Shown here: positions 11,435-64,000 of the stretch, piece by piece
How positions within the stretch are numbered: position 1 is the first letter of the stretch
Layout: each line of letters starts with the position of its first letter
DNA from: Candidatus Woesearchaeota archaeon
GTDB taxonomy: Archaea; Nanobdellota; Nanobdellia; Woesearchaeales; WAPY01
NCBI GenBank assembly: GCA_049700835.1
Contig: JBNAUL010000001.1
Coordinates: 246,043 to 310,042, forward strand
Direction: 5' to 3'
Length of the DNA: 64,000 bases
Translations under genes and position numbers: made by a program
The notes under the pieces: generated by a model
Told to the model about the DNA's origin: nothing
Databases searched by the model: none
Seen by the model: only the letters and a program-made list of their open reading frames with translations

Positions 11435-11506
11435 CTTAACCCCCTAAGGATTAGAAAAGGATTTGCTGATTTAAAAATCTTTGCTTTTAAAATAATAATA
11501 AGAACC

Positions 11507-15158: not shown

Positions 15159-15209
15159 TTCACAAAACAGAAATTTTTATATAGTATGATAAATTAATTC
15201 TTTTTTGGG

Positions 15210-15821: not shown

Positions 15822-15856
15822 CAGAAAAATAAATAGAATTTTTTTTTTAAAATAAA

Positions 15857-16567: not shown

Positions 16568-16587
16568 AAATAATTAAAAATAAGGAG

Positions 16588-17672: not shown

Positions 17673-17780
17673 AAGAAGTTTTGTTTTTATTTGTTTTTTA
17701 TATTTTACTTAATGTTCTTAAACAACTTCGTGAAAAATTTTGAAAGTGATTTAAAAATAATTTTAAGAGGATTTGCTTGA

Positions 17781-18098: not shown

Positions 18099-18159
18099 AT
18101 TTTTAATAATTTTTGTTTACTAACTTTTTTGAATTAACTCGATTTAATAAGGTGTTTTA

Positions 18160-38750: not shown

Positions 38751-40463
38751 ATGAAAAACATAGAAGTTGCAAATTTGTTATATGACATTGCTGACATTCT
38801 TGAAATACTTGGAGAAGCATTCAAACCGCAAGCATATAGAAAAGCTGCAAAGTCAATAGAGAGTTTAGGCGAAGACATTGAGGACTACTATAAAAACGGC
38901 AAATTGAGGGAAATTCCAGGAGTAGGAGAGAGCATAAGCGAGAAGATAAAAGAGTTCATAGCAACAGGAAAATCAAGTTATTATGAAGAACTCAAGAAAA
39001 AGATTCCAGAGGGAGTTGCAAGTTTAATAGAAATACCTGGAATGGGGCCTAAAAAGGCAATTTACTTATACAAGACATTGAATATAAAATCAATCGAGGA
39101 TTTGGAAGAAGCAGCAAAGAAAGGAAAATTGAAAGAGCTCAAAGGTTTTGGAGAAAAGAGCGAACAGGATATTCTAAAAGGAATAGAAATCCTGAAGAAG
39201 GGGCAGGAAAGATTTCTTTTAGGAGTTGCTCTGCCAATCGCAGAGGACATAGTTAATAGATTAAAAACCCTGAAAGAAGTTCAGAGGATAAGCATTGCAG
39301 GCTCTCTGAGAAGGATGAAGGAAACGATAGGAGATGTTGATATATTGGTGGTCTCGAAAAATCCAGAACCTGTAATGAATTATTTTACAAGCATTAAGGA
39401 GGTTAAAGATGTTATTGCAAAGGGAAAGACAAAGTCATCTGTAATATTGAACAGCAATTTGCAGGTTGATATAAGAGTCGTTGAAGATGAGAGTTTTGGT
39501 TCTGCTCTGCAGTATTTTACAGGAAGCAAAGAACACAACATTGCTTTGAGGGAGATATGCAAAAAAAAGAATTTGAAATTGAGCGAGTACGGGCTTTTTG
39601 ACAGCAAGAACAAAAGGATTGCAGGAAAGAATGAAGAAGAAGTTTACAAGAAGCTTGGGATGCAGTTCATAGAACCAGAACTTAGGGAAAACAATGGGGA
39701 GATAGAAGCTGCCCTAAAATGGAAATTGCCAAAACTTTTAGCATACGATGATGTGAGAGGGGACTTGCATGTCCACAGCAAATGGAGCGATGGAGTTGAT
39801 GAAATAAGGGAGGTTGCAATAGAGGCAAAAAAACTCGGCTATGAATACATCGCAATAACAGATCATTCAAAATCTCAGAGAATTGCCAGAGGACTTTCAG
39901 AACAAGATTTGGAAAAGAGAAATAGGGAAATAGATTCCTTGAATGAAAAGCTTCCAATAAATATATTGAAAGGCGCTGAGGTCGACATTCTTCCAGACGG
40001 AAGTTTGGATTATGATGACAGAGTGCTAAAAAATCTTGATTTAGTGATAGTTTCAATACACTCTAGGTTCAAATCAACAAAGGAGGAAATGACAAATAGA
40101 ATATTAAAAGCGCTTGACAACCCCTATGTAAACATCTTGGGGCATCCGACAGGAAGAATAATAACATCGAGGATTGAATATGAGGTAGATATTGACAGAA
40201 TAATAGAAAAGGCAAAATCAAACAGGATTGCATTGGAAATAAACTCAAATCCTGAAAGGTTGGATTTAAGGGATACCTATGTAAGAAAAGCAGTAAATTC
40301 TGGCGCAAAGCTTGCAATAGGAACTGATGCGCATTCAAAACTCCATCTCCATTTTATTAAATTTGGGATTGCCACAGCAAGGAGGGGATGGGCTGAAAAG
40401 AAGGATGTCATCAATGCTATGAGCTTTAAAGAACTCAACAAATTCTTGAAAAAAACAGAGTAG
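38751..40463 (+). CDS. polX: DNA polymerase X / PHP 3'-5' exonuclease
   Basis: HhH motifs, AGSLRR.KETIGDVD, YFTGSKEHN, DLHVHS.WSDG, ITDHS, TDAH. Confidence 0.95.
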   Translation: MKNIEVANLLYDIADILEILGEAFKPQAYRKAAKSIESLGEDIEDYYKNGKLREIPGVGESISEKIKEFIATGKSSYYEELKKKIPEGVASLIEIPGMGPKKAIYLYKTLNIKSIEDLEEAAKKGKLKELKGFGEKSEQDILKGIEILKKGQERFLLGVALPIAEDIVNRLKTLKEVQRISIAGSLRRMKETIGDVDILVVSKNPEPVMNYFTSIKEVKDVIAKGKTKSSVILNSNLQVDIRVVEDESFGSALQYFTGSKEHNIALREICKKKNLKLSEYGLFDSKNKRIAGKNEEEVYKKLGMQFIEPELRENNGEIEAALKWKLPKLLAYDDVRGDLHVHSKWSDGVDEIREVAIEAKKLGYEYIAITDHSKSQRIARGLSEQDLEKRNREIDSLNEKLPINILKGAEVDILPDGSLDYDDRVLKNLDLVIVSIHSRFKSTKEEMTNRILKALDNPYVNILGHPTGRIITSRIEYEVDIDRIIEKAKSNRIALEINSNPERLDLRDTYVRKAVNSGAKLAIGTDAHSKLHLHFIKFGIATARRGWAEKKDVINAMSFKELNKFLKKTE

Positions 40464-47924: not shown

Positions 47925-48281
47925 ATGTTGAGAAAGATTAGATACAGGAAGAACTTGACAAGGTTTTTGAGATTCTTAGAGGAAAACTTTCCAAATCCTG
48001 TTCATGAGGAGGAGATATGCTCAAAACTTCATTTCAACGATGAGGACTATCACTATGTATCAAGCTATTCCTTGAGAAGGGGCTTTGTTGAGAAGAAACA
48101 CAACGGATTTGTTCTGAAGGGAGAAGGGCTTATATTTTTAGAACAAAATCTCCTTAAGAACAAGATACTGCATTTCTTCAACACTTACAGCGTTGTAATA
48201 AATATGATTTTAACAATATTGAATATAATTCTGTTTTGGGTATTTCTAAAGATTCTAGGATTGAAAATAAGCTTAAGATAA
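47925..48281 (+). CDS. Hypothetical protein (wHTH-like plus C-terminal TM)
   Basis: 118-aa ORF after a TATA-like element; hydrophobic C-terminus. Confidence 0.6.
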   Translation: MLRKIRYRKNLTRFLRFLEENFPNPVHEEEICSKLHFNDEDYHYVSSYSLRRGFVEKKHNGFVLKGEGLIFLEQNLLKNKILHFFNTYSVVINMILTILNIILFWVFLKILGLKISLR

Positions 48282-48309
48282 GCACGAGTTGGTTTTAGAA
48301 CTTGTTTGT

Positions 48310-48765
48310 TCACTCTTCTTTTCTTTTTATTAGAGTTGATTTTTCTTCTGGAAGCTTTGATTTGACGAGTTCTAAAACTTTTTTACAGATAGACTTTTTA
48401 ACAGGAACAACTATTGGAAATGCGTAGTCAAACAAGAAACCCTTGAGCAGGATAATGCATTTTTCCTTTTCATGAATTACTTCAAAGCATTTAAAGTAAC
48501 TCCATTTGTAACTGAAGAATCCTGCTCTTATCATGCTTTCATTCAAATAAAAATGGAGTTTCCAATTGATTGGATGCCTGAAGTAGGTGTCGTAGAACAT
48601 TACAATCAGAAAGATGTTTATTAATAAGAAAAGATAAAAACCAATTACTTCTAAAAATAAGAAAATGAAATTTAAAAATATTATCAAGAGGAGAATGAAC
48701 AGGAAAGCGTCCCTTCTGTATCTCAATACATCGTTGCTGTTTGAATAAAAACTTATGCTTTTCAT
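48310..48765 (-). CDS. Hypothetical membrane protein (2 TM)
   Basis: 151-aa ORF directly downstream of tRNA-Thr. Confidence 0.6.
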   Translation of the reverse strand: MKSISFYSNSNDVLRYRRDAFLFILLLIIFLNFIFLFLEVIGFYLFLLINIFLIVMFYDTYFRHPINWKLHFYLNESMIRAGFFSYKWSYFKCFEVIHEKEKCIILLKGFLFDYAFPIVVPVKKSICKKVLELVKSKLPEEKSTLIKRKEE

Positions 48766-48791
48766 TTTTTGTTTCTCTCTTTTGCTTATTA

Positions 48792-48864
48792 AGCCCCTAC
48801 TGGGATTTGAACCCAGGATCTGCTGCTTACGAGGCAGCTGCTCTGACCACTAAGCTATAGGGGC
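48792..48864 (-). tRNA. tRNA-Thr (CGT)
   Basis: GCCCCTA acceptor stem, GCTGC-CTCGTAA-GCAGC anticodon arm, TTCAAAT T-loop; no encoded CCA. Confidence 0.95.
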
Positions 48865-48931
48865 TTTTGGTTATTTAAATCTTCTTTTATTCTCTAATCT
48901 TCCTTTTTATTTTTTACGGTCCGACTGCTTC

Positions 48932-49507
48932 TTACGGTCCTACTGCTGTGTTCAACGGAGTTGCTGATGCTGCGATGCAGTTCTCAACAATTATCTTATC
49001 GCTCTCTGTTTTTGAAGGAAGCGAAAATGAAGAGCACGAAAATTCGTATTCATATGAACCTTGGCAGGCAGAATTTTTTATTTCAAGCAACTTTTTATTC
49101 TTATTGCTTGCATTGTATATTCTAACAATCGCGCAATCATAAAAAAATTCCAAAAAACTGCTCGTTTCTTTCATCAAGGAATCTTTGTAATTCTTGTCCT
49201 TTGCATACAGAACTATCAAATCTCCAATGTTCTGCTGCTGGTTGTTTATCAAGACAGGTTTTCTCAAATAACTGAGCAGAGCATTGTTGGATTTCACTCC
49301 AGAAGTCATGTTTGAGATTATCTGATTTTCATTGTTGCCACAACCCTCTAATTTGAATATTAAAAAGAATACAATGGCTGTTAAAAAGGTAAAAATTATT
49401 GCAATGATGTCAACTAACCCTTCCATAACTAACTGCGATTTTTTGTTGCAATTTTTTGTTCTTCTCTTGAATTTCATTTTAGGTTTTATCCTTCTTTTTG
49501 CATTCAA
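48932..49507 (-). CDS. Pilin-like protein (class III signal peptide-like)
   Basis: Basic leader NKKSQ then hydrophobic helix; Cys-containing C-terminus. Confidence 0.7.
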   Translation of the reverse strand: MNAKRRIKPKMKFKRRTKNCNKKSQLVMEGLVDIIAIIFTFLTAIVFFLIFKLEGCGNNENQIISNMTSGVKSNNALLSYLRKPVLINNQQQNIGDLIVLYAKDKNYKDSLMKETSSFLEFFYDCAIVRIYNASNKNKKLLEIKNSACQGSYEYEFSCSSFSLPSKTESDKIIVENCIAASATPLNTAVGP

Positions 49508-50067
49508 ACCTGCTCCATTAAAATTTCAACTTCCAATACAGCATTGTAGAACTTGTCTTTGTCCTTTACAATTATAACTTCCCTCATAATGTTCCTCTTT
49601 GTTGAACCTTTTCCTGAAAAATAACTTCTGGTTAGCATATCCTGATACCTTTCATCATTAAATATTATTTCTTTCAGAACATTGCCGTCCTTTGTTTTTA
49701 TTGATAACTTCATAGACATATACTTGTTGTATTCAAAATAGAATATCTTGTTAAGATTTTCAATATTGAAATTTTCAAGTTCAATGATTCCAGGATGATA
49801 TGTTGAGCCGTCATAAAAACTTATTTCTTTGCTGTAAATCAGTTTTTGGGTTTCAACAAAGGATTTTAACTTGCTTATGTCTTTTTGGCTTGACAGGAAG
49901 TTATAAACAAAAATCCATGCAGTTAAGAGCACAAGCGTCAACAAAACCATCTTTGGAATAAAGTTTATTGCTGCCAAAACAGTGCTTCCTGATTTTCCAA
50001 GACAGAACTTCTTGTTTTTAAATATCATTTTAACCAACAATGCCAATCGCATTGCCTTTTTTCGCAA
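49504..50067 (-). CDS. Pilin-like protein
   Basis: Basic leader GKSG then hydrophobic helix; overlaps neighbours. Confidence 0.65.
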   Translation of the reverse strand: MRKKAMRLALLVKMIFKNKKFCLGKSGSTVLAAINFIPKMVLLTLVLLTAWIFVYNFLSSQKDISKLKSFVETQKLIYSKEISFYDGSTYHPGIIELENFNIENLNKIFYFEYNKYMSMKLSIKTKDGNVLKEIIFNDERYQDMLTRSYFSGKGSTKRNIMREVIIVKDKDKFYNAVLEVEILMEQV

Positions 50068-50449
50068 TGCTCAAACTTTCATTCAAATCCTCAAAAATTA
50101 TTCTTTGATTTGAGTTTTTTGAAAACCAATAACTGACAGGAGTTTCCTTTTCAAAAAAACTTACAAGAACAGAATTGTTTACAATATTTATCCTTGCGCC
50201 TATTTTTGAAGTGTTTATCGGATAATTGCACTCGAGGTCTCCTTTAGCAGACTGCGCTGCCTCAATCAACAACGAGATATCCCTTGAAAGAAACAACTCC
50301 TCATAAGCCTTGTTCTTTGCAAACCTTGAAACATAGATTATCAGAGCAATTAGAATTATTGCTACAATTAACAAATTTCCAAGTTCTATCAAACTCCAAT
50401 CAGTAGAACCTTTCTTTGTTTTTTTAAATTTCATTTTGATAAATTTCAA
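50030..50449 (-). CDS. Pilin-like protein
   Basis: KTKKG|STDWSLIELGNLLIVAIIL. Confidence 0.7.
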   Translation of the reverse strand: MKFIKMKFKKTKKGSTDWSLIELGNLLIVAIILIALIIYVSRFAKNKAYEELFLSRDISLLIEAAQSAKGDLECNYPINTSKIGARINIVNNSVLVSFFEKETPVSYWFSKNSNQRIIFEDLNESLSIAKKGNAIGIVG

Positions 50450-50451
50450 TT

Positions 50452-51084
50452 TTAAGGTTTGTATTCTGAAATAACAACATCATTTCCAACCCTTTTTAAT
50501 GAAAGCACTATTTTGCTGTCATCATCTTTGCTAAAGTAAGCAAGTGGGTTATTTAACATAAACAAATAATAACCTTTACTGATGTCGTTGTTGTCTATTT
50601 GCGCACCAAAATTATATTTTAGTTTTTCAACAACTCTTATGTTTTCAATACTATCACTTAGAATCTTGCAATCCTGAAATGATCTGCAATCATCTTTTTT
50701 CTTACAAACGCATATGCAAGCATTATCTCCGCAAATCTTCGGCTTGTCAATCAATTTGTTTCCGCTCTCAAAAGTGGACAATTTTCCTCTCACAGCATAA
50801 TCCTTAAAACCATTTTTTCCAAAACCAACAACTATGAAATTATCTATCAAAGCAAAGAATTCTGTTGCATTGTTTCCATCTTTTAAGAGATTGTTATTTA
50901 TAGTGTTGAAAAGTCTATTAAAGGATTGGCTTACCATAAACCTTGCTTTATTATTAGATAGGTATGGATAAATTAACAAAGAAATAATGCTAACAATAGT
51001 TATCACTACAATTACTCCAATCATTGCTCCTCCTAAATTTTTTAAACTCTCTTCGGTTCCACCACTTCCTTCTCCATTGCTCAT
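50452..51084 (-). CDS. Pilin-like/membrane-anchored Cys-rich protein
   Basis: N-terminal TM; C.DNACICVC....C....C motif; GAGGA RBS. Confidence 0.7.
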   Translation of the reverse strand: MSNGEGSGGTEESLKNLGGAMIGVIVVITIVSIISLLIYPYLSNNKARFMVSQSFNRLFNTINNNLLKDGNNATEFFALIDNFIVVGFGKNGFKDYAVRGKLSTFESGNKLIDKPKICGDNACICVCKKKDDCRSFQDCKILSDSIENIRVVEKLKYNFGAQIDNNDISKGYYLFMLNNPLAYFSKDDDSKIVLSLKRVGNDVVISEYKP

Positions 51085-51093
51085 AAAATCCTC

Positions 51094-52011
51094 TTAGCAC
51101 TTTAGGTTTTCTTTATTACATTCTTTTCCTGACTTAAAATCCTTACTATCAATAATATCAAAAATAACGCTTTTACACTTGTTGTGTCCTATTAGATTAA
51201 AACTGAATGGTAAGTTTGCAGTGCAGGTTTTAACTTTGTTATTATTTTTAATTGAACAATAACCAAGAGTTTTTTTATTGTAAGTATCAATTATCTCAAA
51301 ATTGAGATAAGCATTACTTGCAAACGAATTAGAGTTACAATCAGTCATAGCATAAGGTTCACTAAAACTTTTCCAAACAATTGTGTATGGTTGTTTTTCA
51401 TAGTTGCCCAAATCCCAGCATATTGTTGTTATGTCGTTGTCAGGTTTCTCCAATTTTATTTCGGTAAGGCTCTTTTTGCACAAATCGTAATATGAATAAT
51501 CAACTGTATTGACTTCATAATCATACTTTCTAAGATACGCTTCAACTATCTTAAAGCAAACATTGAGTTTTTTGTTCTTGCAGCATTCGGTTCCATGAAG
51601 AGTTACAACAAAATTCTTGCTGTTGTTACAATCAATAGCCTTTTTGTTTTTGTCTTTAATATTCACTTTTAACAATTCGCAATCAACATGCCCTTGGTTG
51701 TCTGTTTTTTCTTTCAAACAATCAAAACTTACACTGTAATTCGCATCTCCATACTGAAAATCCGCCCAATCACCAAACTTTAAGGAGAACTCTTCATTGT
51801 TTTTAGTTTCCTTGCTAAGATAGTCACTAACTTCCTTTAAAGCAATTTCTTCTTCGCTCTTTGTTTCATTAATTGAAGTGTTTATTACACTTCTGCCGTG
51901 AGCTACAACATTGTATATTATTCCTAAGAGCACCACTCCGACTGTTAGAACTAGAACAGTAATAACTATTGTGTTTATACTTAGTTCTATTCCTTTCTTT
52001 TTTAAAAGCAT
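51094..52011 (-). CDS. Pilin-like protein with Cys-rich ectodomain
   Basis: KKKG|IELSINTIVITVLVL; GGAGG RBS. Confidence 0.78.
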   Translation of the reverse strand: MLLKKKGIELSINTIVITVLVLTVGVVLLGIIYNVVAHGRSVINTSINETKSEEEIALKEVSDYLSKETKNNEEFSLKFGDWADFQYGDANYSVSFDCLKEKTDNQGHVDCELLKVNIKDKNKKAIDCNNSKNFVVTLHGTECCKNKKLNVCFKIVEAYLRKYDYEVNTVDYSYYDLCKKSLTEIKLEKPDNDITTICWDLGNYEKQPYTIVWKSFSEPYAMTDCNSNSFASNAYLNFEIIDTYNKKTLGYCSIKNNNKVKTCTANLPFSFNLIGHNKCKSVIFDIIDSKDFKSGKECNKENLKC

Positions 52012-52012
52012 T

Positions 52013-52138
52013 TTAAACCTCCATTTTTAATAGAGGAGCAAGCAGATTCTTTAATGGCGGAAAAACAATAAAGATAAGCACTAATAAAACAATCAGCGCT
52101 ATCAAGAATTTTATTATCGTTGAAAGCGTAAGTTCCAT
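52013..52138 (-). CDS. Small pilin-like hydrophobic peptide (41 aa, not in ORF track)
   Basis: MELTLSTIIKFLIALIVLLVLIFIVFPPLKNLLAPLLKMEV; GAGGTG RBS. Confidence 0.6.
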   Translation of the reverse strand: MELTLSTIIKFLIALIVLLVLIFIVFPPLKNLLAPLLKMEV

Positions 52139-52206
52139 TAAAACACCTCTTTTTGCTTTTTACTATTATTTTTTTTAATTTTAATTAATTTTATCCGAAA
52201 ATAATT

Positions 52207-52395
52207 TTATCTGAAAAAGAGCAGTTCCCTGATTCTTTCAACTAAGCTTATGTTCTTATTTTTTATTTGGTAAATTATAAACAAGATTACAACCAACAAG
52301 AGCAATAAAAAGATAATTGTTGTTATTACATCATGAACTTCGTATCCTTTTTTGAAAAATCTTAATTTCATTTTAACCATATCTTGATTTAACAT
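52207..52395 (-). CDS. Small pilin-like protein
   Basis: FFKKG|YEVHDVITTIIFLLLLLVVIL. Confidence 0.7.
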   Translation of the reverse strand: MLNQDMVKMKLRFFKKGYEVHDVITTIIFLLLLLVVILFIIYQIKNKNISLVERIRELLFFR

Positions 52396-52430
52396 ACTAT
52401 TTTGTTTTCTTCTTTAAAAATTTTGTTTTT

Positions 52431-53360
52431 TTATTGAGTTTGAACAGCAGGTAGTTCCTCGCAACCAAGCTCGTCAAAAGCTTCTTTTTTGTAATCCCTA
52501 AAAACAACGAATGAAATCCATTGCGGCTCTGCCTTCGCAGCATACATACCAACACCGCCAACTCCAATTCCAGCAAGAGTAAGTCCTTTCCAAATCAAAG
52601 CAGGTCCAAAACCAAATTTTGTTGTAACTACTCCGACAGCAATCATCGCGATTCCAGGAACAGCACCCTTTGCTTTGGTTAAAAAATTATCCCACGGGTC
52701 TCTGCCTTTAATGTAAGTGAAGACAATTGCATAATCCTTGCTTCTTTTAGTGTCAATGTATGCAAGGGAATTAACAACTTCTTCTTCATCCTTTTTTAGA
52801 CTTTCTGTTTTCTCTGTTTTGTAAGCAGTCAGATAATCAAAATAACTAATCCCTCCTGATTTCTTCTTTGATTTTAAAACATCAACAAAGTTATTAAGTT
52901 GAACATCGTTAGACATCTCAAAGTGTATGCTTGAGCAAACAACGCAGAAAATTCCATCCTTGTTGAAGAGCAGCAACTTGCCTTCATGAAATTTGTTCCA
53001 GCAAAGAACGGTTTCGTCAGCAACAACATCTTCTACAATACTCTTGATGTTTTGATTTCCCTTGTAATCCTTGAACTTTTCATTATTGACATAAACCCCT
53101 TCATCCTTGAAGGTAACATACCTTGTTGGACATTTTAGTTGGGTTGAAAATGTTTCTTTTGTTGCATAGGAAGATGCAGCAGCAATTTCAACGCTGCTCT
53201 TGCATTCTTCTATTTCTTGATTTTCAGAATACATTATCTTAAACTTATAGATTATTATACTTATCACAATTAAAACTGCCAAAATTATTATTATGCTTAC
53301 AATTTGCGAATACTCCAATCCGATCTTGTTTTTTTTATTGTTTTTTTTAATTATTATCAT
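52431..53360 (-). CDS. Pilin-like protein with conserved Cys ectodomain
   Basis: KNKIG|LEYSQIVSIIII; CKSSV, ADE..LCW..F.EGK, CVVCS. Confidence 0.75.
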   Translation of the reverse strand: MIIIKKNNKKNKIGLEYSQIVSIIIILAVLIVISIIIYKFKIMYSENQEIEECKSSVEIAAASSYATKETFSTQLKCPTRYVTFKDEGVYVNNEKFKDYKGNQNIKSIVEDVVADETVLCWNKFHEGKLLLFNKDGIFCVVCSSIHFEMSNDVQLNNFVDVLKSKKKSGGISYFDYLTAYKTEKTESLKKDEEEVVNSLAYIDTKRSKDYAIVFTYIKGRDPWDNFLTKAKGAVPGIAMIAVGVVTTKFGFGPALIWKGLTLAGIGVGGVGMYAAKAEPQWISFVVFRDYKKEAFDELGCEELPAVQTQ

Positions 53361-53397
53361 TTTTATAATTTACTTTTATAATTCAACATTTTATAAT

Positions 53398-54189
53398 TTA
53401 ACCATACAGTAAAGTGCAACCATTTATTAACAATTTCAACGGCGCAATTGTTACCATTGAATGATGCGTTTTTGCCAATCTAAAGAATGAGCCTTCGCTA
53501 GCAATAAAAGCAAGATAATATTCATTGTTTGTTCTTATGTTAAACTCCTCTCTTTTTATAACGTCCACTTTTGGGAGTATTGTTGCAACTCCATAAATTT
53601 TTAAAGAAATTATGTAAACATTTTCAAACACTTCTTCTTTTTTATTCTTATCAGCATTAGGATACAAGTAATCAAAGTAACTCATTTTTTTGTCTTTCAT
53701 TTCATTCTTCATAAGAAAATCCATTAATTCGCTAAAAGTTATTTCGTTGAAAGGAGCATCCTTAACATTTATCTTTGAGCAAACATTGCACAGAATTTTA
53801 TTTCCTACCAAAACCTTATTGTATTCTATTTTTCCTTCAACAAAAATGTTCCAGCACTTTGCCATTTCATCAGCAAGTATCTTCATAGTACTGTTCTTTA
53901 CTTCTTCATTGCTCAAGCCTTTATAGCTCACCTGCTTTTTATTGTTAATATAAATTCCATCCTTTTTTATAGAGATATCTTTTGATTCGCATTGTAAAAC
54001 AGCATCGCTAAAACTCAAAGCATTCTTTCCAATATAATTTTTTAAAACGCTTGCTCTGCAAGCGCTTTCTTTGGCTGATTCGTTGCTCACTTGGCTTAAT
54101 AAACCAGCTATTACAAGAAGGATAAAAATTACGATTAGAACTATTATTATTGCAACTAAAATTCCAATTCCTTTTTTGTTTTTTATCAT
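53398..54189 (-). CDS. Pilin-like protein, paralog of 52431-53360
   Basis: KNKKG|IGILVAIIIV; CRASV, ADEMAKCW..F.EGK, CNVCS. Confidence 0.75.
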   Translation of the reverse strand: MIKNKKGIGILVAIIIVLIVIFILLVIAGLLSQVSNESAKESACRASVLKNYIGKNALSFSDAVLQCESKDISIKKDGIYINNKKQVSYKGLSNEEVKNSTMKILADEMAKCWNIFVEGKIEYNKVLVGNKILCNVCSKINVKDAPFNEITFSELMDFLMKNEMKDKKMSYFDYLYPNADKNKKEEVFENVYIISLKIYGVATILPKVDVIKREEFNIRTNNEYYLAFIASEGSFFRLAKTHHSMVTIAPLKLLINGCTLLYG

Positions 54190-56993: not shown

Positions 56994-59900
56994 ATGATAA
57001 ATTCAAATGAAATATGGAAAAGCGAAAGAAGCAGAACAGCAAATGCAACGCTCATAAGCATCGTTGTTTTAACTGCTTTCCTGCTCATATTCCTATTGCA
57101 GAACCCGAACAAAACAATAATCTCAGCAGTCTCAGCAGAAACAGGAGAGGACATAAATCAATCTCTCAATGATACTTTGAATGCGCAGATTAATGACAGC
57201 CAAAACAATGGAACGAATGCAAGCATAAATAATCCTCCGATTATGTTGAAAGAAATAAGCAATTACACGATTAATTATGGAGAAGAAATAACTCTAAATC
57301 TTTCAGAATACTTTTATGATCCGGACAATGATACGATCGTTTATTCAGCAGTTTCAACTCAGAACATTTCAATAACAATAATTGAAAACAAAGCATCCAT
57401 GAAAGCAATAAACAATTTCATAGGCATAGGATATGCAAAATTTTTGGCTTCTGATTTAAAGAACATAACCTTTAGCAACGAGTTCTCAATAAATGTTACG
57501 CAACAAGAAAACTATTCAAACAGCCCGCCGAACTGTACAATACCAAACATAACTTTAGTGAAGGATTACAGTAGAACAATAGATTTCAAAGAGTTTTGCA
57601 ATGATAATGAAAACCAAACTCTGAACTTTAACCTTTCAGCAGATTTAAACTTTACTCAAGAAAATTCGTTGTTCACATTCATTCCTAAAACCAAAGGAAC
57701 TTTCAACGCTACGCTGATAGTCAATGATTCAAAAAACATTTCACAATACTGCTTGCAGATTCAAGTGAAGGAGTTTTTGTTTAACATCTCCACAAACAAG
57801 CAGCAGTATCTGCCTGGAGAAGAAACATACATAAGCATAAATGCTCCTAACAATTCAATTGTCAATCTAACGCTTACAACCCCCTCTCAACAGAGAGAAC
57901 AAGAATTGATAAGCAGCTTTCCAATAACATACATATACTATGGTTCTGAAGAAGGAACATATTCAATAAAAGCAAAGGCAAGTTATTACTATGCAAATCA
58001 AGAAAAGAATTTGAATTTTACAATCAAAAGCCCGAGCAACTTAACAGCTTCGATCGATTCTGTTTCAGAAGCAAGAACAATAGACACTATAACGATTAGA
58101 GCAATAGTTTCAGGAAACTACGGGAGCGTTTCTTATGAATGGGATTTAAACAATGATAACATAACCGATTCAAATTCGCAGAATATAACATACAATTTCA
58201 GAAATACAGGAACAGCAAATGTGAGATTAAAAGCAAAAGATACTTACAAGGAAGTAACTGTTTACAAGCAAATAAGAATCTTGGGATTCTACGATGTTGC
58301 AATCATCGTGAATGATGAAAACGGTGAGCACTTAAATGCAGTTGTAAGTTTCAACAACGAAACAAAAAACACTCAAAATGGCAGTGCTGTCTTTAAAGAT
58401 GTTCTTGAAGGTGAGCATAAAGTATATATTTCAAAGGATGGATACTATGACTATGAAAGTTACATAGTAGTGTCTTCAAATAAAACAGTTGAAGTGCAAC
58501 TCGCAAAGATAAGGGAAAAACCCCGCATAACAATAATAGAACCAGAAAACAATTATGTCTTTGGCAATAAGAACATAAGCATAAAGTTCTCAGTCAGCGC
58601 TTACAGCAAATTAAACTGCATTTTATACCTTAAGAGCATTGGTGATTGGTGGATTGAAAAATCAAATCTAAAGAACATAGAGCCAAATTCAGAAGCGGTT
58701 TTTGAACTCAACTTGGAAGAAGGAAACTATACCTCTAAAATAGAGTGCTCTGATGGATTAATGAGTTCTGCAAGCAATGAGCTGAACTTTAAAATAAACC
58801 TCTCAGCAGTACAGCTCTTTGCAGGCTATGCAAGCTATGATTCAGTTTCTGTGTTTGACGATTCAATAGAAGAAATAGACAATTCAATTTCCTATGTTTA
58901 TTCCCTTAACACAGAGCTTTTGGAAACTCTTGTTAGCTTAAACATAGTAAAAGAACTTGAAAATTACAAGAAGGATGTTGAAAGGGCAAGAAGGGACTAC
59001 TTTGATTTGAGGCAAAAGGATTTGAACCAAAGCGAGTTGGAAAATCAGAGTGCTCAAATTTTAAAAAGGGTTTTAGATGCAAGAACAAGAATAGTTACCC
59101 GTGTTGTTCTGAAAGATGTAGCATCATTCATAAAATACCCAACAGAAGAAGACATCTACAATGTAACAATGGATTACTACCAAATCCTAAAACCAAAGGC
59201 AAAATATTCAGAATACAAAAAACTGAACGAGCAAGCGCAATCATTAGCAACAGTGACGACAAGAGTTGAAAGAATAGCGATTGAAAGAAAAAATTTTACA
59301 GAAGAATTCTATCTGATTAGAAAGACGATAAATCCGTCAGCAAATCTGAGCGAGATTTCTCTAATTCAAAAGATACCGAAGAGCATAGTAAATGATGCTT
59401 CAAAAATAAGATTTTTGTCAAAAACCAACATCTTGCAGCAAGATCCATTGATAGAGTTCAAAATCAGCGAGCTTGAGAACAACATTGCAACATATCTGAT
59501 AAACCTTGATATTACCGGAGAAAAGAACATGAAGGACTTTGAAGAAATAAAGGATGTCTTTGTACTAAACAAAATAAATCCAAAAGCTTCTCAAACAACA
59601 GGAATGGCAATAATTGATTTGAACAGATTGAACCTGAATTCAGATGCAATGTCCTTAAGAATATTTGTTGTAGTGCTGCTCCTGCTTGTTTTTCTATTCC
59701 TTTCTTTGGAGATAAACCCGATACTGCTTATGAGGAAAGGAAGGAATGTTGAAAAACAGATTTTCATACTGTTAGACCAAGCAAAGGAGTTGATGCAGCA
59801 CGCAAAGTACGATGAAGCAGCTTCGATATACTATGAGATAAAGCTTCTATACAATCTTTTAAGTTTCAAGCAAAAGGAGGCCCTCTACGAAGACATAAAG

Positions 59901-60101
59901 AATTTTTATGACAGCCTGAACGCAGCATATTTGGAGCAACTATTGGAAGAAGCGCAAACATCTGCTAATGAAAACAGGATTCAAGATGCTAAGAAGTTCT
60001 TGGAGTATTGCACATATGTTTATCAAATTCTGCCTCAAGAACTTAAAGAAATGTTCTCAAAAAAATACGAAAACCTGAAAAAATTTATTGAACAAAAATG
60101 A
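56994..60101 (+). CDS. Large membrane-anchored surface protein (cadherin/Ig-like, PKD, prealbumin-like domains, TM, cytoplasmic helical repeats)
   Basis: N-terminal TM; NNPP/NSPP..FYDPDND repeats; YEWDLNND PKD-like motif; many sequons; TTGMAI then TM near aa 890; A..IY.EI..LY..L tail. Confidence 0.75.
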   Translation: MINSNEIWKSERSRTANATLISIVVLTAFLLIFLLQNPNKTIISAVSAETGEDINQSLNDTLNAQINDSQNNGTNASINNPPIMLKEISNYTINYGEEITLNLSEYFYDPDNDTIVYSAVSTQNISITIIENKASMKAINNFIGIGYAKFLASDLKNITFSNEFSINVTQQENYSNSPPNCTIPNITLVKDYSRTIDFKEFCNDNENQTLNFNLSADLNFTQENSLFTFIPKTKGTFNATLIVNDSKNISQYCLQIQVKEFLFNISTNKQQYLPGEETYISINAPNNSIVNLTLTTPSQQREQELISSFPITYIYYGSEEGTYSIKAKASYYYANQEKNLNFTIKSPSNLTASIDSVSEARTIDTITIRAIVSGNYGSVSYEWDLNNDNITDSNSQNITYNFRNTGTANVRLKAKDTYKEVTVYKQIRILGFYDVAIIVNDENGEHLNAVVSFNNETKNTQNGSAVFKDVLEGEHKVYISKDGYYDYESYIVVSSNKTVEVQLAKIREKPRITIIEPENNYVFGNKNISIKFSVSAYSKLNCILYLKSIGDWWIEKSNLKNIEPNSEAVFELNLEEGNYTSKIECSDGLMSSASNELNFKINLSAVQLFAGYASYDSVSVFDDSIEEIDNSISYVYSLNTELLETLVSLNIVKELENYKKDVERARRDYFDLRQKDLNQSELENQSAQILKRVLDARTRIVTRVVLKDVASFIKYPTEEDIYNVTMDYYQILKPKAKYSEYKKLNEQAQSLATVTTRVERIAIERKNFTEEFYLIRKTINPSANLSEISLIQKIPKSIVNDASKIRFLSKTNILQQDPLIEFKISELENNIATYLINLDITGEKNMKDFEEIKDVFVLNKINPKASQTTGMAIIDLNRLNLNSDAMSLRIFVVVLLLLVFLFLSLEINPILLMRKGRNVEKQIFILLDQAKELMQHAKYDEAASIYYEIKLLYNLLSFKQKEALYEDIKNFYDSLNAAYLEQLLEEAQTSANENRIQDAKKFLEYCTYVYQILPQELKEMFSKKYENLKKFIEQK

Positions 60102-62500
60102 GATTAGGATTTTGTAGAGTAGGATGTAGGATAGGAAAATCAAAATTTTGCATTGCGCTAATTTTATTAGTTATTGGCATTTTGCTAAATATTGGAAAAG
60201 CAAATGCTTTAATCATAGAACCTCAGGAAATAAACGAGTTTGTCGCGATAAACAAGTTTTTGGAGCTAAATGTAACATTCAACAACGACGAATACCAAAC
60301 ATTGAATATAAATCTTGAAAAATCAAAAGAACTTGAGGATGTTTTAGATATAACAGAAACTTCCTTCAAATTAAATCCGAAAACATCAAAGAACATAAAA
60401 ATGCTTATTCTTGGAAATGCTGAACAGGAAATCTACTTCAACAAGAGCTTTAAGCAAGTTTCAGGATATATAACAATTCTTCCTTTAAATAAAAAAATTC
60501 CTGTAAAGATTGTAATAACTGACGGCAGAAAATCTTTGCTTCAAACAATGTTTGTAGAATTAGAGCCTGTAAACAAAGTTGTTGCTCAAGGTAGCGATTT
60601 CAAATACAAAATAAGCATCAACAACTTATTGACGGATTGGAATTACAATGTGACTTTATCTTACAAAATAATCAATGAAAAGGAAAACTTTTCAATAGAT
60701 TTGGAAAATGAAAACAACACAATTCTGCTAAAAACATCAAAGACACTGATAAAGACATTTAGAATTCCTGAAAACTTTACTTCAGGGGATTATAAGCTCA
60801 TAGTAAATACATATTATTTAAAGTACAATTCCACATACTCAACACTCTTTACTGTTCAAACGCCTCTTTTAAAAATAAAATTATTTGGTAGGATAATGGT
60901 ATGGCAGTTGATTCTTTTATTTGCCATAGCAGCTCTACTGAGTTTTGCTTATGTTCGTTATCGTGTTTTTAGGAGGTCTAGGCTTAGGTATGGTGTTTCT
61001 GTTGATGTTAGGAGTTTGCGTCGTGTTTCTGATAAGTTGGGTTTTGTTGGTAAGGTTGCTGAGGTTGGTGTTCCTTTTTATTTTGATTTGAATTTGTTGT
61101 CTACTCATTGTATTGTTGCTGGTGCTACTGGTGGTGGTAAGAGTGTTGCTGCTCAGGTTTTTGTTGAGGAGTGTTTGAAGCGTGGTGTTGGTGTTTTGGT
61201 TTTTGATCCTACGGCTCAGTGGTCTGGTTTTTTGAGGGCTTGTTCTGATGTTAGGATGTTGGGTTTGTATTCTGGTTTTGGTTTGCGTAGGGGTGATGCT
61301 CGTGGTTTTCCTGGTAATGTTCGTTTGGTTAGGGATGCTAGGGAGGTTGTTGATGTTAGGCGTTTTTTGAAGGCTGGTGAGATTAATGTTTTTGTTTTGA
61401 GTAGGTTGGAGCCTGAGGATATTGATTTTTTTGTTGCTAATACTGTTCGTGAGGTTTTTAGGGCTGGTTTTGATGAGTTTGGTGGTTTGCGTTTTTTGTT
61501 GGTTTATGATGAGGTTCATCGTTTGTTGCCTAGGTTTGGTGGTTCTGGTGAGGGTTTTGTTCAGATTGAGCGTGCTTGTCGTGAGTTTCGTAAGTGGGGT
61601 GTTGGTGTTGTTTTGATTAGTCAGGTTTTGTCTGATTTTGTTGGTGAGATTAAGGCTAATATTAATACTGAGGTTCAGGTTAGGACTCGTGATGAGGGTG
61701 ATTTGCAGCGTGTTCGTGAGAAGTATGGTGAGGAGTTTTTGAGGGGTTTGGTTAGGGCTAGTGTTGGTACTGGTTTGTTTGAGAATCCTGTTTATAATGG
61801 TGGTAGGCCTTTTTTTGTTAGTTTTAGGCCTTTGTTGCATAGTGTTTCTAGGTTGTCTGATGGGGAGTTGGATGCTTATGATCGTTTTAATGGTTTGGTT
61901 GATCAGTTGGGTTTTGAGTTGGATTCTTTGGAGGGTTTGGGTGTTGATGTTTTTGATTTGCGTTTGGAGTTGAGGTTGGCTTTGGATAAGTTGAAGGTTG
62001 GTAATTTTGGTATGGTTGAGGTTTATTTGGATGGTTTGAGGTCTAGGGTTGATAGTGTTTGGAGGGGTTTGGGTAGGGTTGCTCCTGTTTTTGAGCGTCG
62101 TTTGGTTTCTCGTGATGAAGTTTTGCGTAGTGTTGAGGAGGCTAGGAGGGAGAGGCAGAAAGCCATAAAAGAAGAAAAATCTTCTGAAAAAGAAAAACAA
62201 AAAGATAAAGAAAAGAAAAAGGAAAAGATAGTAAAACCTCTTGTTTTTGACAACGGCGCAATGGTTGGTTCAATAGAAGAATTATTAGACGCTTTACCTC
62301 CGATGAGTGTTTCTGTGTTCAGTAAACATGTAAATCAGTCAAAGAACGACATTAAGGATTGGATTGAAAAGGAGTTTAAGGATGAGCAGTTAATAAAAGC
62401 AGTTAGTGTTTTAACTAAAAAGGAGATGATAGACAACATAAAAAAATATTTAGAAGAAAAGAACAAAGATAAGAAAGAGGAAAAAGAAGAAAAGAAATAG
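60098..62500 (+). CDS. Membrane-anchored HerA/VirB4/DUF87-like ATPase with Ig-like ectodomain and C-terminal DUF5752-like domain
   Basis: Signal peptide; TM about aa 262-287; H..VAGATGGGKS Walker A, VFDPT, VYDEVH Walker B, REFRKWG, LISQ; C-terminal F.KHVN..KNDI..W. Confidence 0.85.
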   Translation: MRLGFCRVGCRIGKSKFCIALILLVIGILLNIGKANALIIEPQEINEFVAINKFLELNVTFNNDEYQTLNINLEKSKELEDVLDITETSFKLNPKTSKNIKMLILGNAEQEIYFNKSFKQVSGYITILPLNKKIPVKIVITDGRKSLLQTMFVELEPVNKVVAQGSDFKYKISINNLLTDWNYNVTLSYKIINEKENFSIDLENENNTILLKTSKTLIKTFRIPENFTSGDYKLIVNTYYLKYNSTYSTLFTVQTPLLKIKLFGRIMVWQLILLFAIAALLSFAYVRYRVFRRSRLRYGVSVDVRSLRRVSDKLGFVGKVAEVGVPFYFDLNLLSTHCIVAGATGGGKSVAAQVFVEECLKRGVGVLVFDPTAQWSGFLRACSDVRMLGLYSGFGLRRGDARGFPGNVRLVRDAREVVDVRRFLKAGEINVFVLSRLEPEDIDFFVANTVREVFRAGFDEFGGLRFLLVYDEVHRLLPRFGGSGEGFVQIERACREFRKWGVGVVLISQVLSDFVGEIKANINTEVQVRTRDEGDLQRVREKYGEEFLRGLVRASVGTGLFENPVYNGGRPFFVSFRPLLHSVSRLSDGELDAYDRFNGLVDQLGFELDSLEGLGVDVFDLRLELRLALDKLKVGNFGMVEVYLDGLRSRVDSVWRGLGRVAPVFERRLVSRDEVLRSVEEARRERQKAIKEEKSSEKEKQKDKEKKKEKIVKPLVFDNGAMVGSIEELLDALPPMSVSVFSKHVNQSKNDIKDWIEKEFKDEQLIKAVSVLTKKEMIDNIKKYLEEKNKDKKEEKEEKK
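60938..62158 (+). other. Extreme G+T (keto)-biased tract within the ATPase gene
   Basis: By manual reading, 406 of 407 codons end in T or G (exception GAA at 62117); abrupt return to A-rich codons on both sides. Confidence 0.95.
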
Positions 62501-62689
62501 ATGTGCACATAAAAGGAACTCAGTGAAATCTAAATTTACTAATTTAAATTATTAAATTAACAAATCTAAATTTTATGTTTTTGTTCTCTTCAATCTTTTT
62601 TTGGTTGTTACATTCATTTAAAATATTTAAAATCAAATTTTTAGAAACAGAACAATTGTGAATTTTAGCAATTGTGTAAGTAATACTTT

Positions 62690-62815
62690 TACATACTTAG
62701 TATGTATTAGTAAGTAAAGTAATTTTAAGCGTTACAATTATTATAACTTTTAAAAAAGAGATATAAAACAGAAACATTTATATATCAATATACATATTTA
62801 GTATGTTTTAGTATG
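62690..62815 (+). promoter_or_regulatory. Promoter flanked by palindromic operators
   Basis: TACATACT-T-AGTATGTA at 62690-62706; TTTATATA at 62777; near-copy TACATATT-T-AGTATGTT at 62791-62807; extra TTAGTATG at 62808. Confidence 0.6.
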
Positions 62816-62909
62816 ATATTTCATTATGGGGTGATGCTCTATAAGAAAACAAGCGCGCGAGCAGGAAAAAAATGCTGCATATGAAAATAAGAATTCTAAA
62901 AAAGATTCT

Positions 62910-63164
62910 TTGTACAGAATTAAAAAAAACCAAAGCATTGATTTCAATTTTGCAGATTTATTCAACGATGTAAATACAAAAAAAATCAATAATAAAAAGC
63001 GCAGTAAAAGAATAACAATTACAATAGATAAAAATCTGCTTAATTTTTTGGATCACCTTATTTCTAAGAGAATTTTTGCCAATAGGAGTCATGCTTTTGA
63101 ATTTTTAATAAGAAAGAGAACAGAATTTGAGAATGAAAGAGAGAATTACTATTACCTTAAATGA
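62910..63164 (+). CDS. Ribbon-helix-helix regulator (possible ATA start at 62841)
   Basis: KRITITIDKNLL..LD..I..RIFANRSHAFEFLI. Confidence 0.8.
   Translation: MYRIKKNQSIDFNFADLFNDVNTKKINNKKRSKRITITIDKNLLNFLDHLISKRIFANRSHAFEFLIRKRTEFENERENYYYLK
63066..63110 (+). repeat. 45-bp exact repeat, copy 1 (copy 2 at 63199-63243)
   Basis: AAGAGAATTTTTGCCAATAGGAGTCATGCTTTTGAATTTTTAATA in both RHH genes. Confidence 0.95.
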
Positions 63165-63297
63165 GGAACTGCTGGACTGGATAGATAACAAAATTAAGAA
63201 GAGAATTTTTGCCAATAGGAGTCATGCTTTTGAATTTTTAATAGCAAGATTGATGGAAAACAACAAGCTTCAGAGCGAAGATGAAAACAAGAGATAA
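63133..63297 (+). CDS. Ribbon-helix-helix regulator (54 aa, not in ORF track)
   Basis: MKERITITLNEELLDWIDNKIKKRIFANRSHAFEFLIARLMENNKLQSEDENKR. Confidence 0.85.
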   Translation: MKERITITLNEELLDWIDNKIKKRIFANRSHAFEFLIARLMENNKLQSEDENKR

Positions 63298-63325
63298 AAC
63301 CAAAGATTTAGGAAAAGGGAAAAAC

Positions 63326-64000
63326 TTGAAAAATCTTAAAAAGCATTTTGACGAAGGCGGATTTAGGGCAACATTTTATGCCTTGCTGGCAGCAATACTT
63401 GCAATCCTTGCAATAATTGTTCTCATACATATTAAGAATTACATTGGATATATGGCACTTCAAACAAGAGCAGGTTCAATCTCTGAATTGAAGATTGACC
63501 TACGATTGCCAGCATCGATATGGAGCGGATTTTACGGTTTAGGGCTAATGGTTCCTGGATATACAGAACAACAACTTGATGTTGCAATTGGCAATACAAT
63601 TAAGAACAAGCACTTGGTTTTTGACTGCTTGAAATACGATGAAGAAAATCCTCCTGAAATTTATGCTTCAACCTCTCCTGTCATTCTCTGGGAAACACTA
63701 AGCCCAGCAACAACAGACATGGTTGACAATTACTTGGAAGTAAGCCCTGATTACATAATGTCAGGCACAAATACCTTCACAACGACTATGACAATAAGAT
63801 TAGGAGATAGAAACATAACAAACATTCCAGCAACACATACTAAAAAATTTGGAGCTCCTGACAGCATGCTCTTTGACATTGGAGTTTTGAGAGACGCAAA
63901 CAACAACTTAGTTTTTGTAACTCATGTTACAGACTATGTCAGGGGCTTTAACAACGAACTTGTAAACTATCAAATGCTACTTCCTGTAAAATCAGATACG
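63326..64000 (+). CDS. Secreted/membrane-anchored WxGxYG-motif protein (3' truncated by window)
   Basis: Open frame from TTG 63326 to the end: N-terminal TM, AGSISEL.I, IWSGFYG, GFNNELVNYQMLLP. Confidence 0.75.
   Translation, partial: MKNLKKHFDEGGFRATFYALLAAILAILAIIVLIHIKNYIGYMALQTRAGSISELKIDLRLPASIWSGFYGLGLMVPGYTEQQLDVAIGNTIKNKHLVFDCLKYDEENPPEIYASTSPVILWETLSPATTDMVDNYLEVSPDYIMSGTNTFTTTMTIRLGDRNITNIPATHTKKFGAPDSMLFDIGVLRDANNNLVFVTHVTDYVRGFNNELVNYQMLLPVKSDT

Follow-up and report, generated by a model that had tools for sequence, protein, structure and literature searches.

A strand-specific tract of G- or T-ending codons in a woesearchaeal HerA/FtsK-like ATPase gene coincides with a cassette homogenised between tandem paralogs

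In the mouse gene Fxy, GC-biased gene conversion raised the GC content and fixed residue changes (PMC12290510). Here we describe an archaeal tract of 407 codons, almost all of which end in G or T. The tract lies in a 64,000-nucleotide stretch of the genome of a Candidatus Woesearchaeota archaeon (contig JBNAUL010000001.1, positions 246,043 to 310,042; the whole stretch is called the window below), inside a gene for a predicted membrane-anchored ATPase. It coincides with a segment, the ATPase cassette, that is homogenised between tandem paralogs. Our best reading is that the tract may be a strand-specific counterpart of GC-biased gene conversion. The drive at Fxy followed the move of the gene into the pseudoautosomal region. 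It is selection-like and linked to recombination; it brought one base class near to fixation at synonymous sites, forced residue changes against purifying selection and was confined to the recombining part of the gene (PMC12290510), and the tract resembles it in each of these respects. Unlike the Fxy drive, the tract favours keto bases (G and T, as opposed to the amino bases A and C) and is strand-specific, the setting is a pair of archaeal paralogous cassettes and not meiosis, and the bias is read from the pattern. Concerted evolution by ectopic conversion is the other close parallel: paralogs have unrelated ends and a shared core that is identical or, in L067, nearly so (1156, 1134 and 1131 nt in the related loci L002, L059 and L067), and they group by genome in a tree. 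Ordinary homogenisation, unlike what is seen here, leaves composition unchanged (the share of codons ending in G or T is 0.46 in L059); what is new in the tract is the compositional drive. Mutation and repair in archaea are strand-specific to a small degree only, as a 2026 study of their skews concludes, and this makes a local strand-specific tract more surprising. We found no published description of such tracts in a search by title that left most subscription journals uncovered, which is weak evidence of absence.

We use K3 for the share of codons that end in G or T. A recount of the tract, which is in frame with its gene (see the table), gave exactly the figure of the first-pass annotation of the window: the third base is a keto base in 406 of the 407 codons (K3 0.998), namely T in 277 and G in 129, and it is A in one. 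The tract uses about one codon per amino acid (GTT 57/57, GGT 44/45, GCT 20/20, TTG 46/48, GAT 26/26, TTT 32/32, AAG 10/10, GAG 29/30), and only Arg (CGT 24, AGG 28) and Ser (TCT 14, AGT 10) are encoded by two codons. Leu is TTG, not CTT or CTG; thus, the keto preference extends to the synonymous first position. The four-fold sites carry T 175 times and G three times, with no C and no A. At the two-fold sites, the purine is G in 121 cases and A in one, and the pyrimidine is T in 95 cases and never C. The annotation had described this choice of T at four-fold and G at two-fold purine sites, and also a shift of the protein itself towards Arg, Val, Gly and Phe at the expense of Lys and Ile; both descriptions agree with our counts (Lys 10, Ile 7, Arg 52, Val 57, Gly 45, Phe 32). 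The borders stand where it had placed them, since the codons on either side, CTA at 60935 and AAA at 62159, end in A.

The rest of the window looks different. The other 38 open reading frames (ORFs) of at least 200 aa have K3 values of 0.43–0.57. The only run of at least 25 G/T-ending codons in the six frames of the window is one of 393 codons at 60938–62116. The keto content per 300 nt is 0.78–0.81 in the tract, against a window mean of 0.488 (sd 0.057), and in the sliding scan that the annotation had proposed, run within the window, no other 300-nt segment rises above 0.62. In 100-codon windows over the window and 1.32 Mb of related loci, the mean K3 is 0.50 (sd 0.088); at a K3 near 0.5, the probability of 406 out of 407 is below 1e-100 by arithmetic. 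We rejected a replication- or transcription-linked skew spread over neighbouring genes: the skew does not extend to the neighbouring forward-strand genes, whose K3 is 0.43–0.50. The 421-aa open frame on the opposite strand was also rejected as a gene. It is an automatic by-product of the tract, in which no antisense codon starts with T because no sense codon ends in A, and it matches no Pfam family.

The 800-aa product of the gene has a signal or anchor segment, an Ig-like ectodomain, a transmembrane (TM) helix, a HerA/FtsK-like ATPase domain, a Lys/Glu linker and a C-terminal domain. Its Pfam matches are PF01935 (DUF87; 47.1 bits, cut-off 23.2), PF05872 (HerA_C; 29.0, cut-off 22) and PF01580 (FtsK_SpoIIIE; 27.6, cut-off 24), and it has 759 protein relatives at E<=0.001, mostly named Woesearchaeota. 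The AF2 model of the cassette has a pLDDT of 91.9 and a pTM of 0.90; its top fold match in the PDB is HerA 4d2i_A (E 1.6e-13, TM 0.51), a structure that is also matched by sequence (E 1.8e-7). Judging from the model and these matches, the encoded protein is a HerA/FtsK-superfamily P-loop ATPase with a predicted RecA-like core that resembles the solved HerA hexameric translocase. The frame of the tract is unbroken, and GATGGGKS, YDEVH, RKWG and SQ are all present, as had been noted. Among the 131 columns conserved at 90% or more in the family, 119 are kept in the window cassette; the 12 that changed show K>R, I>V, P>A/S/R, M>L, Y>F and G>S. At the 70% conservation level, 39 of 216 columns are changed, compared to 13–29 of 218–220 in five control cassettes, so that the directional substitutions include residue changes against conservation. 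The columns kept at the 90% level support the view that the catalytic residues and the fold were retained under purifying selection despite the recoding. The annotation had proposed a directional, strand-specific and local pressure under purifying selection, and the intact motifs, the kept columns and the confident model bear this part of it out.

In order to place the tract among its relatives, we scanned one genome per species, which gave 78 loci, and translated the cassettes in frame. It turned out that the tract recurs. The L001 cassette (K3 0.988) has the same borders and 96% protein identity to the window cassette; the two copies in L002 (K3 0.962 and 0.953) are each 71% identical to it, and the L071 cassette (K3 0.888) is 53% identical. 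Relative to their own upstream coding sequence, these five tract copies have a K3 excess of +0.42 to +0.57, and the other 83 copies lie between −0.17 and +0.24. At the protein level, nine of the 120 best relatives (P0001–P0009) combine a keto-shifted cassette with an ordinary N-terminal part; P0002 is an almost identical protein on another contig, and P0004 is 77% identical. The named protein matches are all Woesearchaeota or Nanoarchaeota. Loci L007 and L054 were rejected as milder tracts, being at most 0.16 above their own upstream coding sequence.

L002 carries a third tract. It occupies nucleotides 2 to about 1050, has a K3 near 1.0 and lies in a gene for a Cys-rich secreted protein that is unrelated to the ATPase (forward-strand ORF 2–1915, open at the 5' end). 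The tract ends sharply inside the ORF near nt 1045–1085, and its codons are TGT in 45 of 46 cases, GAT in 31 of 32, and GTT in 34 with GTG in 13. Large internal repeats are found in two relatives of this gene product (P0150, P0151), and in another assembly an ORF (P0153) begins inside the tract. Thus, keto tracts are not unique to the ATPase domain, a point on which the annotation needs correction. All six tracts (window, L001, three in L002, L071) are keto-rich on the sense strand.

What the ATPase tracts have in common is seen in the arrangement of the family. It is widespread in Woesearchaeota and has variable ectodomains. Its members are found as tandem paralogs of two kinds, one short (about 800 aa) and one long (about 1200 aa, with CarboxypepD_reg ectodomains), which have only the ATPase cassette in common. 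In L002, the two paralogs are 100% identical over 1156 nt (10824–11979 and 15004–16159) and share nothing else. The K3 runs of these copies begin at 10823 and 14997, within 1–7 nt of the start of the identity, and the saturation stops about 23 nt before the end of the identical segment. In the window, the long form begins downstream of the tract gene and runs off the end. The protein P0121 is 100% identical to the window part of this long form (P0009, the second L002 copy, is 58% identical). P0121 and P0122 stop 26 and 33 residues into the cassette, and their identity with the short form begins at residue 281 in P0121 and at residue 283 in P0122; the last 26 residues of P0121 are short-form residues 281–306, and residue 281 is the first tract codon. 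Both are encoded on contigs of at most 3428 nt; short contigs that end in the cassette are the expected sign of an assembly breaking at a repeat. At the other border, P0003 is identical through the ATPase and has another C-terminal domain, a swap that shows a recombination joint at the 3' border of the tract. Thus, the tract coincides with the segment homogenised between tandem paralogs. This gives direct support to one of the three candidate processes in the annotation, biased conversion among paralogous cassettes. The other two were an error-prone copy-back by a reverse transcriptase (RT) or polymerase and a domain replacement from a GT-skewed donor.

Nine loci contain two cassette copies, and in three of them the pair is homogenised (L002; L059, 100% over 1134 nt; L067, 98.9% over 1131 nt). 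Among the remaining six, five pairs are at 68–75% nucleotide identity, and the L065 pair has no nucleotide match. In the cassette tree, the pairs of L002, L059 and L067 are sisters, so that copies within a genome are closer to each other than to their orthologs. The ORF downstream in L001 (10992–13382) was rejected as a long-form paralog because it encodes a different protein.

We considered whether the tract could be an artefact, either an assembly chimera or contamination by a synthetic recoded construct. The borders do match those of a soluble-domain construct, the source assemblies are metagenomic, and the cassette repeat breaks assemblies. Against this, versions as divergent as 96%, 71% and 53% in protein identity carry the tract in separately deposited records, nine proteins from four source collections share the residue shift, and an unrelated gene in L002 also has a tract. 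The protein itself is shifted, unlike the product of a construct that recodes a natural protein. The tract is natural and heritable; chimerism or synthetic contamination is very unlikely, and we give it next to no weight.

The tree also bears on the possibility that the cassette was replaced from a GT-skewed donor such as a single-stranded DNA virus or a plasmid, with recombination confined to the conserved cassette. Archaeal viruses do encode ATPases of the HerA/FtsK type, both L002 paralogs hold the same cassette, and the tract has sharp borders limited by homology. Nucleotide identity between the window and L001 is 0.94–0.99 in the tract and 0.65–0.81 in the flanks, which could mean a younger, exchanged cassette. 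However, this high identity is explained by pinned synonymous sites together with the 96% protein identity. The protein tree that the annotation had proposed as a check does not place the cassette with an unrelated GT-skewed organism: it nests within the chromosomal Woesearchaeota family. The window, L001 and L002 form one clade (SH-aLRT 100) on a long stem, and the order within this keto clade mirrors that of the flanks, the window being nearest to L001 and then to L002; the flanks of the window are syntenic with L001. L071 stands apart as a sister to L067 and then L059, and it gained its tract separately and without the residue shift. Judging from this tree, the keto tract arose at least twice. 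None of the 78 loci has a gene-wide K3 above 0.82, and the most skewed one, L031, has an ordinary DNA-strand skew. Among the loci scanned, the donor candidate has no support, and we consider it quite improbable. As to L031 itself, positions 1–22820 show a strong skew over the whole locus, with T-ending third positions (T3) of 0.44–0.66 in forward-strand genes and A-ending ones (A3) of 0.53 in reverse-strand genes; the forward strand is thus T-rich regardless of gene orientation. For this reason, L031 was rejected as a milder tract.

How long the tract has been in place can be judged from codon choice. Where the window and L001 have the same residue, they also share the codon in 372 of 385 cases in the tract. 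The corresponding figure is 103 of 211 for the ectodomain (N-terminal part) and 20 of 37 for the C-terminal part. Among the 13 synonymous mismatches in the tract, five are CGT/AGG and one is TCT/AGT, that is, swaps between equally keto-rich codons. These comparisons indicate that the tract is old, its synonymous sites being pinned rather than young.

We then determined the substitution spectrum at codon positions 1 and 2, comparing the window cassette with the consensus of 80 ordinary cassettes. Changes from amino to keto bases outnumber the reverse by 123 to 10: A>G 62 vs G>A 4, A>T 29 vs T>A 2, C>T 19 vs T>C 0, and C>G 13 vs G>C 4. In three of the five control cassettes run, the corresponding ratios are 36:23, 22:13 and 35:25. 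L071 has 18 C>G changes at these positions. The L071 lineage was also polarised at position 3 with L067 and L059, by parsimony at fairly saturated sites, so its numbers are rough: C>T 21, A>T 13, A>G 11 and C>G 4 vs G>A 2 and T>C 1, in total 49 amino-to-keto and 3 keto-to-amino changes. All 26 inferred ancestral A were replaced (13 by T, 11 by G and 2 by C). The residues of the L071 tract are still Lys- and Ile-rich, which indicates that synonymous sites changed first. The bias acts on the base class, with amino-to-keto changes of every type, transversions included, at all codon positions. Translational (tRNA) selection was rejected, the bias being present also at positions 1–2 and in the choice of residues; the tRNA genes of the window (Val-CAC and Thr-CGU) are uninformative on codon bias, and no other known RNA families were found in the window.

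This spectrum also decides about simple deamination. The annotation had held that deamination (A>G, C>T) does not explain the tract since it would leave many G at four-fold sites. The related tracts do carry G at four-fold sites (36 of 167 in L002 and 52 of 133 in L071), but the conclusion stands, in that A>T is as frequent as A>G in L071 and both A>T and C>G are enriched at codon positions 1 and 2. A pure-transition model fitted the four-fold totals of L071 and failed after polarisation (A>T 13 vs A>G 11). Deaminase-type hypermutation of the RIP-like (repeat-induced point mutation) or APOBEC-like kind was rejected likewise, as the changes are not confined to transitions (A>T 13 and C>G 4 in L071; A>T 29 and C>G 13 in the window). 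Fungal RIP also acts on repeated DNA, has borders at the repeat edge and is strand-biased in single events. It makes C>T transitions only and destroys genes, unlike the tract, in which transversions are frequent and the ORF and the fold are intact.

It is possible that the sense strand is often single-stranded, in R-loops, resected tails or a displaced strand, and accumulates damage: deamination would give C>T and A>G, and depurination or oxidation with insertion of A would give G>T and A>T, so that most sites would end as T and fewer as G. A natural precedent for such a damage skew is the H strand of vertebrate mitochondria, which is GT-rich, with its ND6 gene. Like the mitochondrial strand and the bacterial leading strand, the tract combines a G+T-rich strand with a residue shift. 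All six tracts being keto-rich on the sense (non-template) strand favours damage, as does the four-fold hierarchy T > G > C > A, which fits a T sink (T/G/C/A 175/3/0/0 in the window, 124/36/7/0 in L002 and 70/52/8/3 in L071). However, C>G is not a usual product of damage and is enriched (13 vs 4 for the reverse in the window, 18 in L071), and single-strand exposure alone is not expected to produce codon-sharp borders at the edge of paralog homology. Damage skews cover whole replicons or many genes and are far from saturation, unlike a tract of 1.2 kb that is codon-sharp, more than 99% saturated and rich in transversions; no strand skew is known to us that is saturated above 99%. In addition, the window encodes endonuclease V (30355–30990), 8-oxoguanine glycosylase (18160–18816) and PolX, which leaves no visible gap in the repair of such damage, and for the same reason we rejected a loss of repair of deaminated or oxidised bases. 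We consider damage of the sense strand unlikely as the source of the tract.

The tracts have a direction. L002 has no codons that end in A or C in tract codons 9–171 and ten in codons 172–388; L071 has one in codons 14–127 and many after that. The 5' border is fixed, and the 3' border varies by up to about 30 codons between lineages. Thus, saturation decays from 5' to 3'. This polarity is relevant to the copy-back candidate, in which the gene is overwritten by a cDNA made from an mRNA that may have undergone A>I and C>U editing. A bias on the sense strand would be expected under such a process, and sharp borders resemble the homing of diversity-generating retroelements (DGRs), which are a form of it. 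However, conversion by cDNA is expected to favour the 3' end, where the tracts are least saturated. No RT was found among the 57 window proteins and the 28 proteins of L001, L002 and L071, transversions are as common as transitions, and the 30 codon differences between the window and L001 in the tract are not adenine-specific. We consider RNA-templated copy-back, disfavoured on these grounds, highly improbable. The annotation had already set aside a classical DGR, and we agree: no RT was found near the target among the proteins just named, and the cassette has one match in the window, which leaves no template copy there. DGRs are reported in DPANN archaea, and the tract is like their targets in that part of a gene for a surface protein is rewritten from a template, locally and within sharp bounds. 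It differs from them in its target, a conserved cytoplasmic ATPase, and in being homogenised and not diversified.

The reading that we favour is strand-polar, keto-biased gene conversion that homogenises the cassette under purifying selection. In this lineage, homologous recombination (gene conversion) would hold the cassette copies identical, and the conversion would be biased and strand-polar, favouring G and T over A and C on the sense strand. Acting again and again over a long period, such a bias would fix any amino-to-keto change that the protein tolerates. These changes comprise all synonymous sites, the first position of Leu codons where it is synonymous, and many conservative replacements (K>R, I>V, Y>F, N>G/D, M>L/V, P>A/S). 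The catalytic residues and the fold would be retained against the drive by purifying selection. The AT pressure of the genome would choose between the two keto bases, which gives T at the four-fold sites of the low-GC window and L001; the four-fold T:G ratio tracks genome GC, being 70:52 in L071 (49%), 124:36 in L002 (40%), 175:3 in the window (33.5%) and 171:1 in L001 (29%). The drive would stop where paralog homology stops, hence the razor-sharp 5' border. Biased conversion would explain a sharp 5' border set by homology, the 5'-to-3' decay, a spectrum that takes in the whole base class, synonymous sites that are pinned, conservative changes that are forced, and two origins in homogenising lineages. 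The "mutational pressure" of the annotation may then be a bias of conversion rather than of mutation. That conversion itself is the biased step, and what sets the strand, we infer from the sequence pattern. We put the chance that this reading is correct at about even.

A number of observations weigh against it. We know of no conversion bias that is strand-specific or keto-specific; the proposed one is read entirely from the pattern. The keto side being the sense strand in all six tracts is not predicted by the conversion model itself; a transcription-linked process would predict it. The four-fold T:G ratio of the window tract (175:3) is more extreme than that of its flank (33:9), and so more than AT pressure may act. 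L059 (8375–9508 and 10684–11880, K3 0.46) and L067 (6497–7663 and 9036–10205, K3 0.58), the nearest relatives of the tract-bearing L071, are homogenised and have no tract. Homogenisation alone is therefore insufficient, and a further lineage-specific factor is needed. L071 has a single cassette copy in 23 kb; an 895-aa ORF just upstream of its tract gene (L071, 8225–10909, forward strand), with CarboxypepD_reg ectodomains of the long-form type and no cassette, may be a long form that has lost its cassette. The second cassette of the window species lies outside the window and is deduced from proteins, not DNA. The repeats with 100% identity are known from metagenome assemblies, and only short degenerate repeat modules occur in what is visible of the Cys-rich tract in L002.

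An alternative to keto-biased conversion is that the sequence is shaped to promote recombination, or another function at the level of the strand, and not shaped by recombination. Selection would act on a property of the nucleic acid, for example, a GT-rich sense strand with a structure-free A/C-rich complement that makes pairing by a recombinase efficient. RecA prefers TGG-type repeats in binding (PMC3763553). The antisense strand of the tract is almost free of structure, with a mean minimum free energy (MFE) of −5.8 kcal per 150 nt, compared to −27.8 for the sense strand. Rad51 shares the TGG-type preference. Furthermore, selection on composition would be expected to act on a base class at each of the three codon positions, which is how the bias falls, and P0003 has a recombination joint at the tract border. 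However, selection per synonymous site for a second-order benefit would be weak, yet 406 of 407 codons are saturated. The sharp borders inside ORFs and the 5'-to-3' decay better fit a process that forms tracts, L059 recombines to identity without any bias, and the sense RNA is only modestly less structured than its synonymous recodes (−27.8 vs −32.9, sd 1.8). The last comparison is also why selection for an unstructured mRNA was rejected, the effect being small. We assign a low probability to selection on a nucleic-acid property.

For keto-biased conversion, one known enzyme has the right kind of specificity. The archaeal mismatch endonuclease EndoMS/NucS cleaves G/T, G/G and T/T mismatches well, T/C moderately, and A/G, A/A, A/C and C/C poorly (PMC4838380). 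It separates keto-keto from amino-amino mismatches, which is the same division into classes that the tract shows. If ectopic conversion between tandem repeats always started at the same side, with the antisense strand invading, mismatches cut by EndoMS would be recopied from the donor, and A or C on the sense strand would become G or T and not change back; G could still be converted to T, and T would never be lost. Given these preferences and antisense invasion, the expected sense-strand hierarchy is T > G > C > A, as seen at the four-fold sites of the three lineages, and the start at the 5' border that the model requires agrees with the 5'-to-3' decay of saturation. A strand-specific "keto drive" by EndoMS/NucS mismatch cleavage would be a new evolutionary force. 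The role of EndoMS in biasing ectopic conversion is our own post hoc suggestion, and we regard the drive as tentative and rather unlikely. The nucS gene was not seen among the proteins of the window and of the L001, L002 and L071 loci, and a term search of the main text of a 2021 NucS review gave no hit for DPANN, Nanoarchae- or Woesearchae-. The idea ties an in vitro specificity to genome composition.

If keto-biased conversion is the correct reading, then the bias of gene conversion need not be directed towards GC or be symmetric between the strands. A polar keto bias could leave a single codon for each amino acid over 1.2 kb that encode an enzyme of essential appearance. The same bias could change which residues the enzyme is built from (Arg for Lys, Val for Ile) and still not destroy it, and the chemistry of mismatch repair could recode whole protein domains in repeat-bearing archaeal genes. 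For the reading of conservation, it matters that near-perfect synonymous conservation (372 of 385 codons, with flanks about 73% identical) can arise without selection on RNA. Keto tracts also mark homogenised repeats, which are likely breakpoints of assemblies in DPANN genomes.

Features of the tract gene and its surroundings, with positions in the window
Feature	Position	Strand	Basis
Upstream surface protein, 1035 aa, PKD and PEGA-like domains, K3 0.43	56994..60101	+	Syntenic with L001 3791-6820 and L002 6477-10022
Short-form gene, 800 aa	60098..62500	+	ORF list, Pfam, 759 relatives
Putative TM helix, about residues 265-286; the tract begins inside its last turns	60890..60955	+	Hydrophobic stretch in the translation, coordinates by arithmetic
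Antisense open frame, 421 aa	60935..62200	-	ORF list; no Pfam family
G/T-only wobble tract, equal to the homogenised ATPase cassette, residues 281-687	60938..62158	+	Codon counts, L001 identity, paralog identity
Walker A GATGGGKS	61121..61144	+	Sequence; tract residues G62, G65, G67 and K68 invariant in 35 aligned cassettes
Walker B region YDEVH	61505..61519	+	Sequence; tract residues D191 and H194 invariant in 35 cassettes
RKWG to SQ block	61589..61624	+	R218, K219, W220, G221, S228 and Q229 invariant in 35 cassettes
Sole tract codon not ending in G or T, GAA, near the 3' end; GAG in L001	62117..62119	+	Third-base count, comparison with L001
Purine-rich Lys/Glu linker with ordinary A-ending codons	62159..62230	+	Sequence, third-base string
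C-terminal domain; different sequence in P0003	62231..62497	+	Protein alignment
Start of the long-form paralog, runs off the window	63281..64000	+	Ortholog of L002 12894-16439; P0121, P0009

The tract gene lies in ordinary chromosome. The window encodes RNase J, XPD, RtcB, IleRS, AlaRS, HisRS, CTP synthase and other such proteins, and its synteny with L001 includes CTP synthase and the large surface protein upstream of the ATPase gene. The start codon of the ATPase overlaps the stop codon of this surface-protein gene (ATGA, 60098–60101), and the same overlap is present in L001 and L002. The overlap suggests coupled translation of the two genes. Between the short-form and long-form genes, two small tandem ORFs of the ribbon-helix-helix (CopG-like) type with a repeated RIFANRSHAFEFLI motif are located at 62910–63297 on the forward strand; they are absent at that position in L002. 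They are preceded by an AT-rich spacer (62500–62900) with repeated tagtatgt-like words.

Farther from the tract, an oxidative-stress cluster on the forward strand (15210–18816) contains rubrerythrin, flavin reductase-rubredoxin, peroxiredoxin and desulfoferrodoxin genes followed by the gene of the 8-oxoguanine DNA glycosylase mentioned above. The endonuclease V gene, whose product acts in the repair of deaminated adenine, is on the reverse strand, and the PolX-PHP polymerase gene is at 38751–40460 on the forward strand. At 47925–54189, mostly on the reverse strand, there are nine consecutive ORFs (118–309 aa) that have ordinary codon use and no Pfam match at E<=1e-5; the tRNA-Thr gene (48791–48865) lies within this stretch. 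Near the left end of the window, positions 694–793 are a scaffold gap of 100 N. The product of a forward-strand gene at 5947–6957 contains a diadenylate cyclase domain of the DisA type; this suggests that the archaeon, whose genome is small, uses cyclic di-AMP as a signal.

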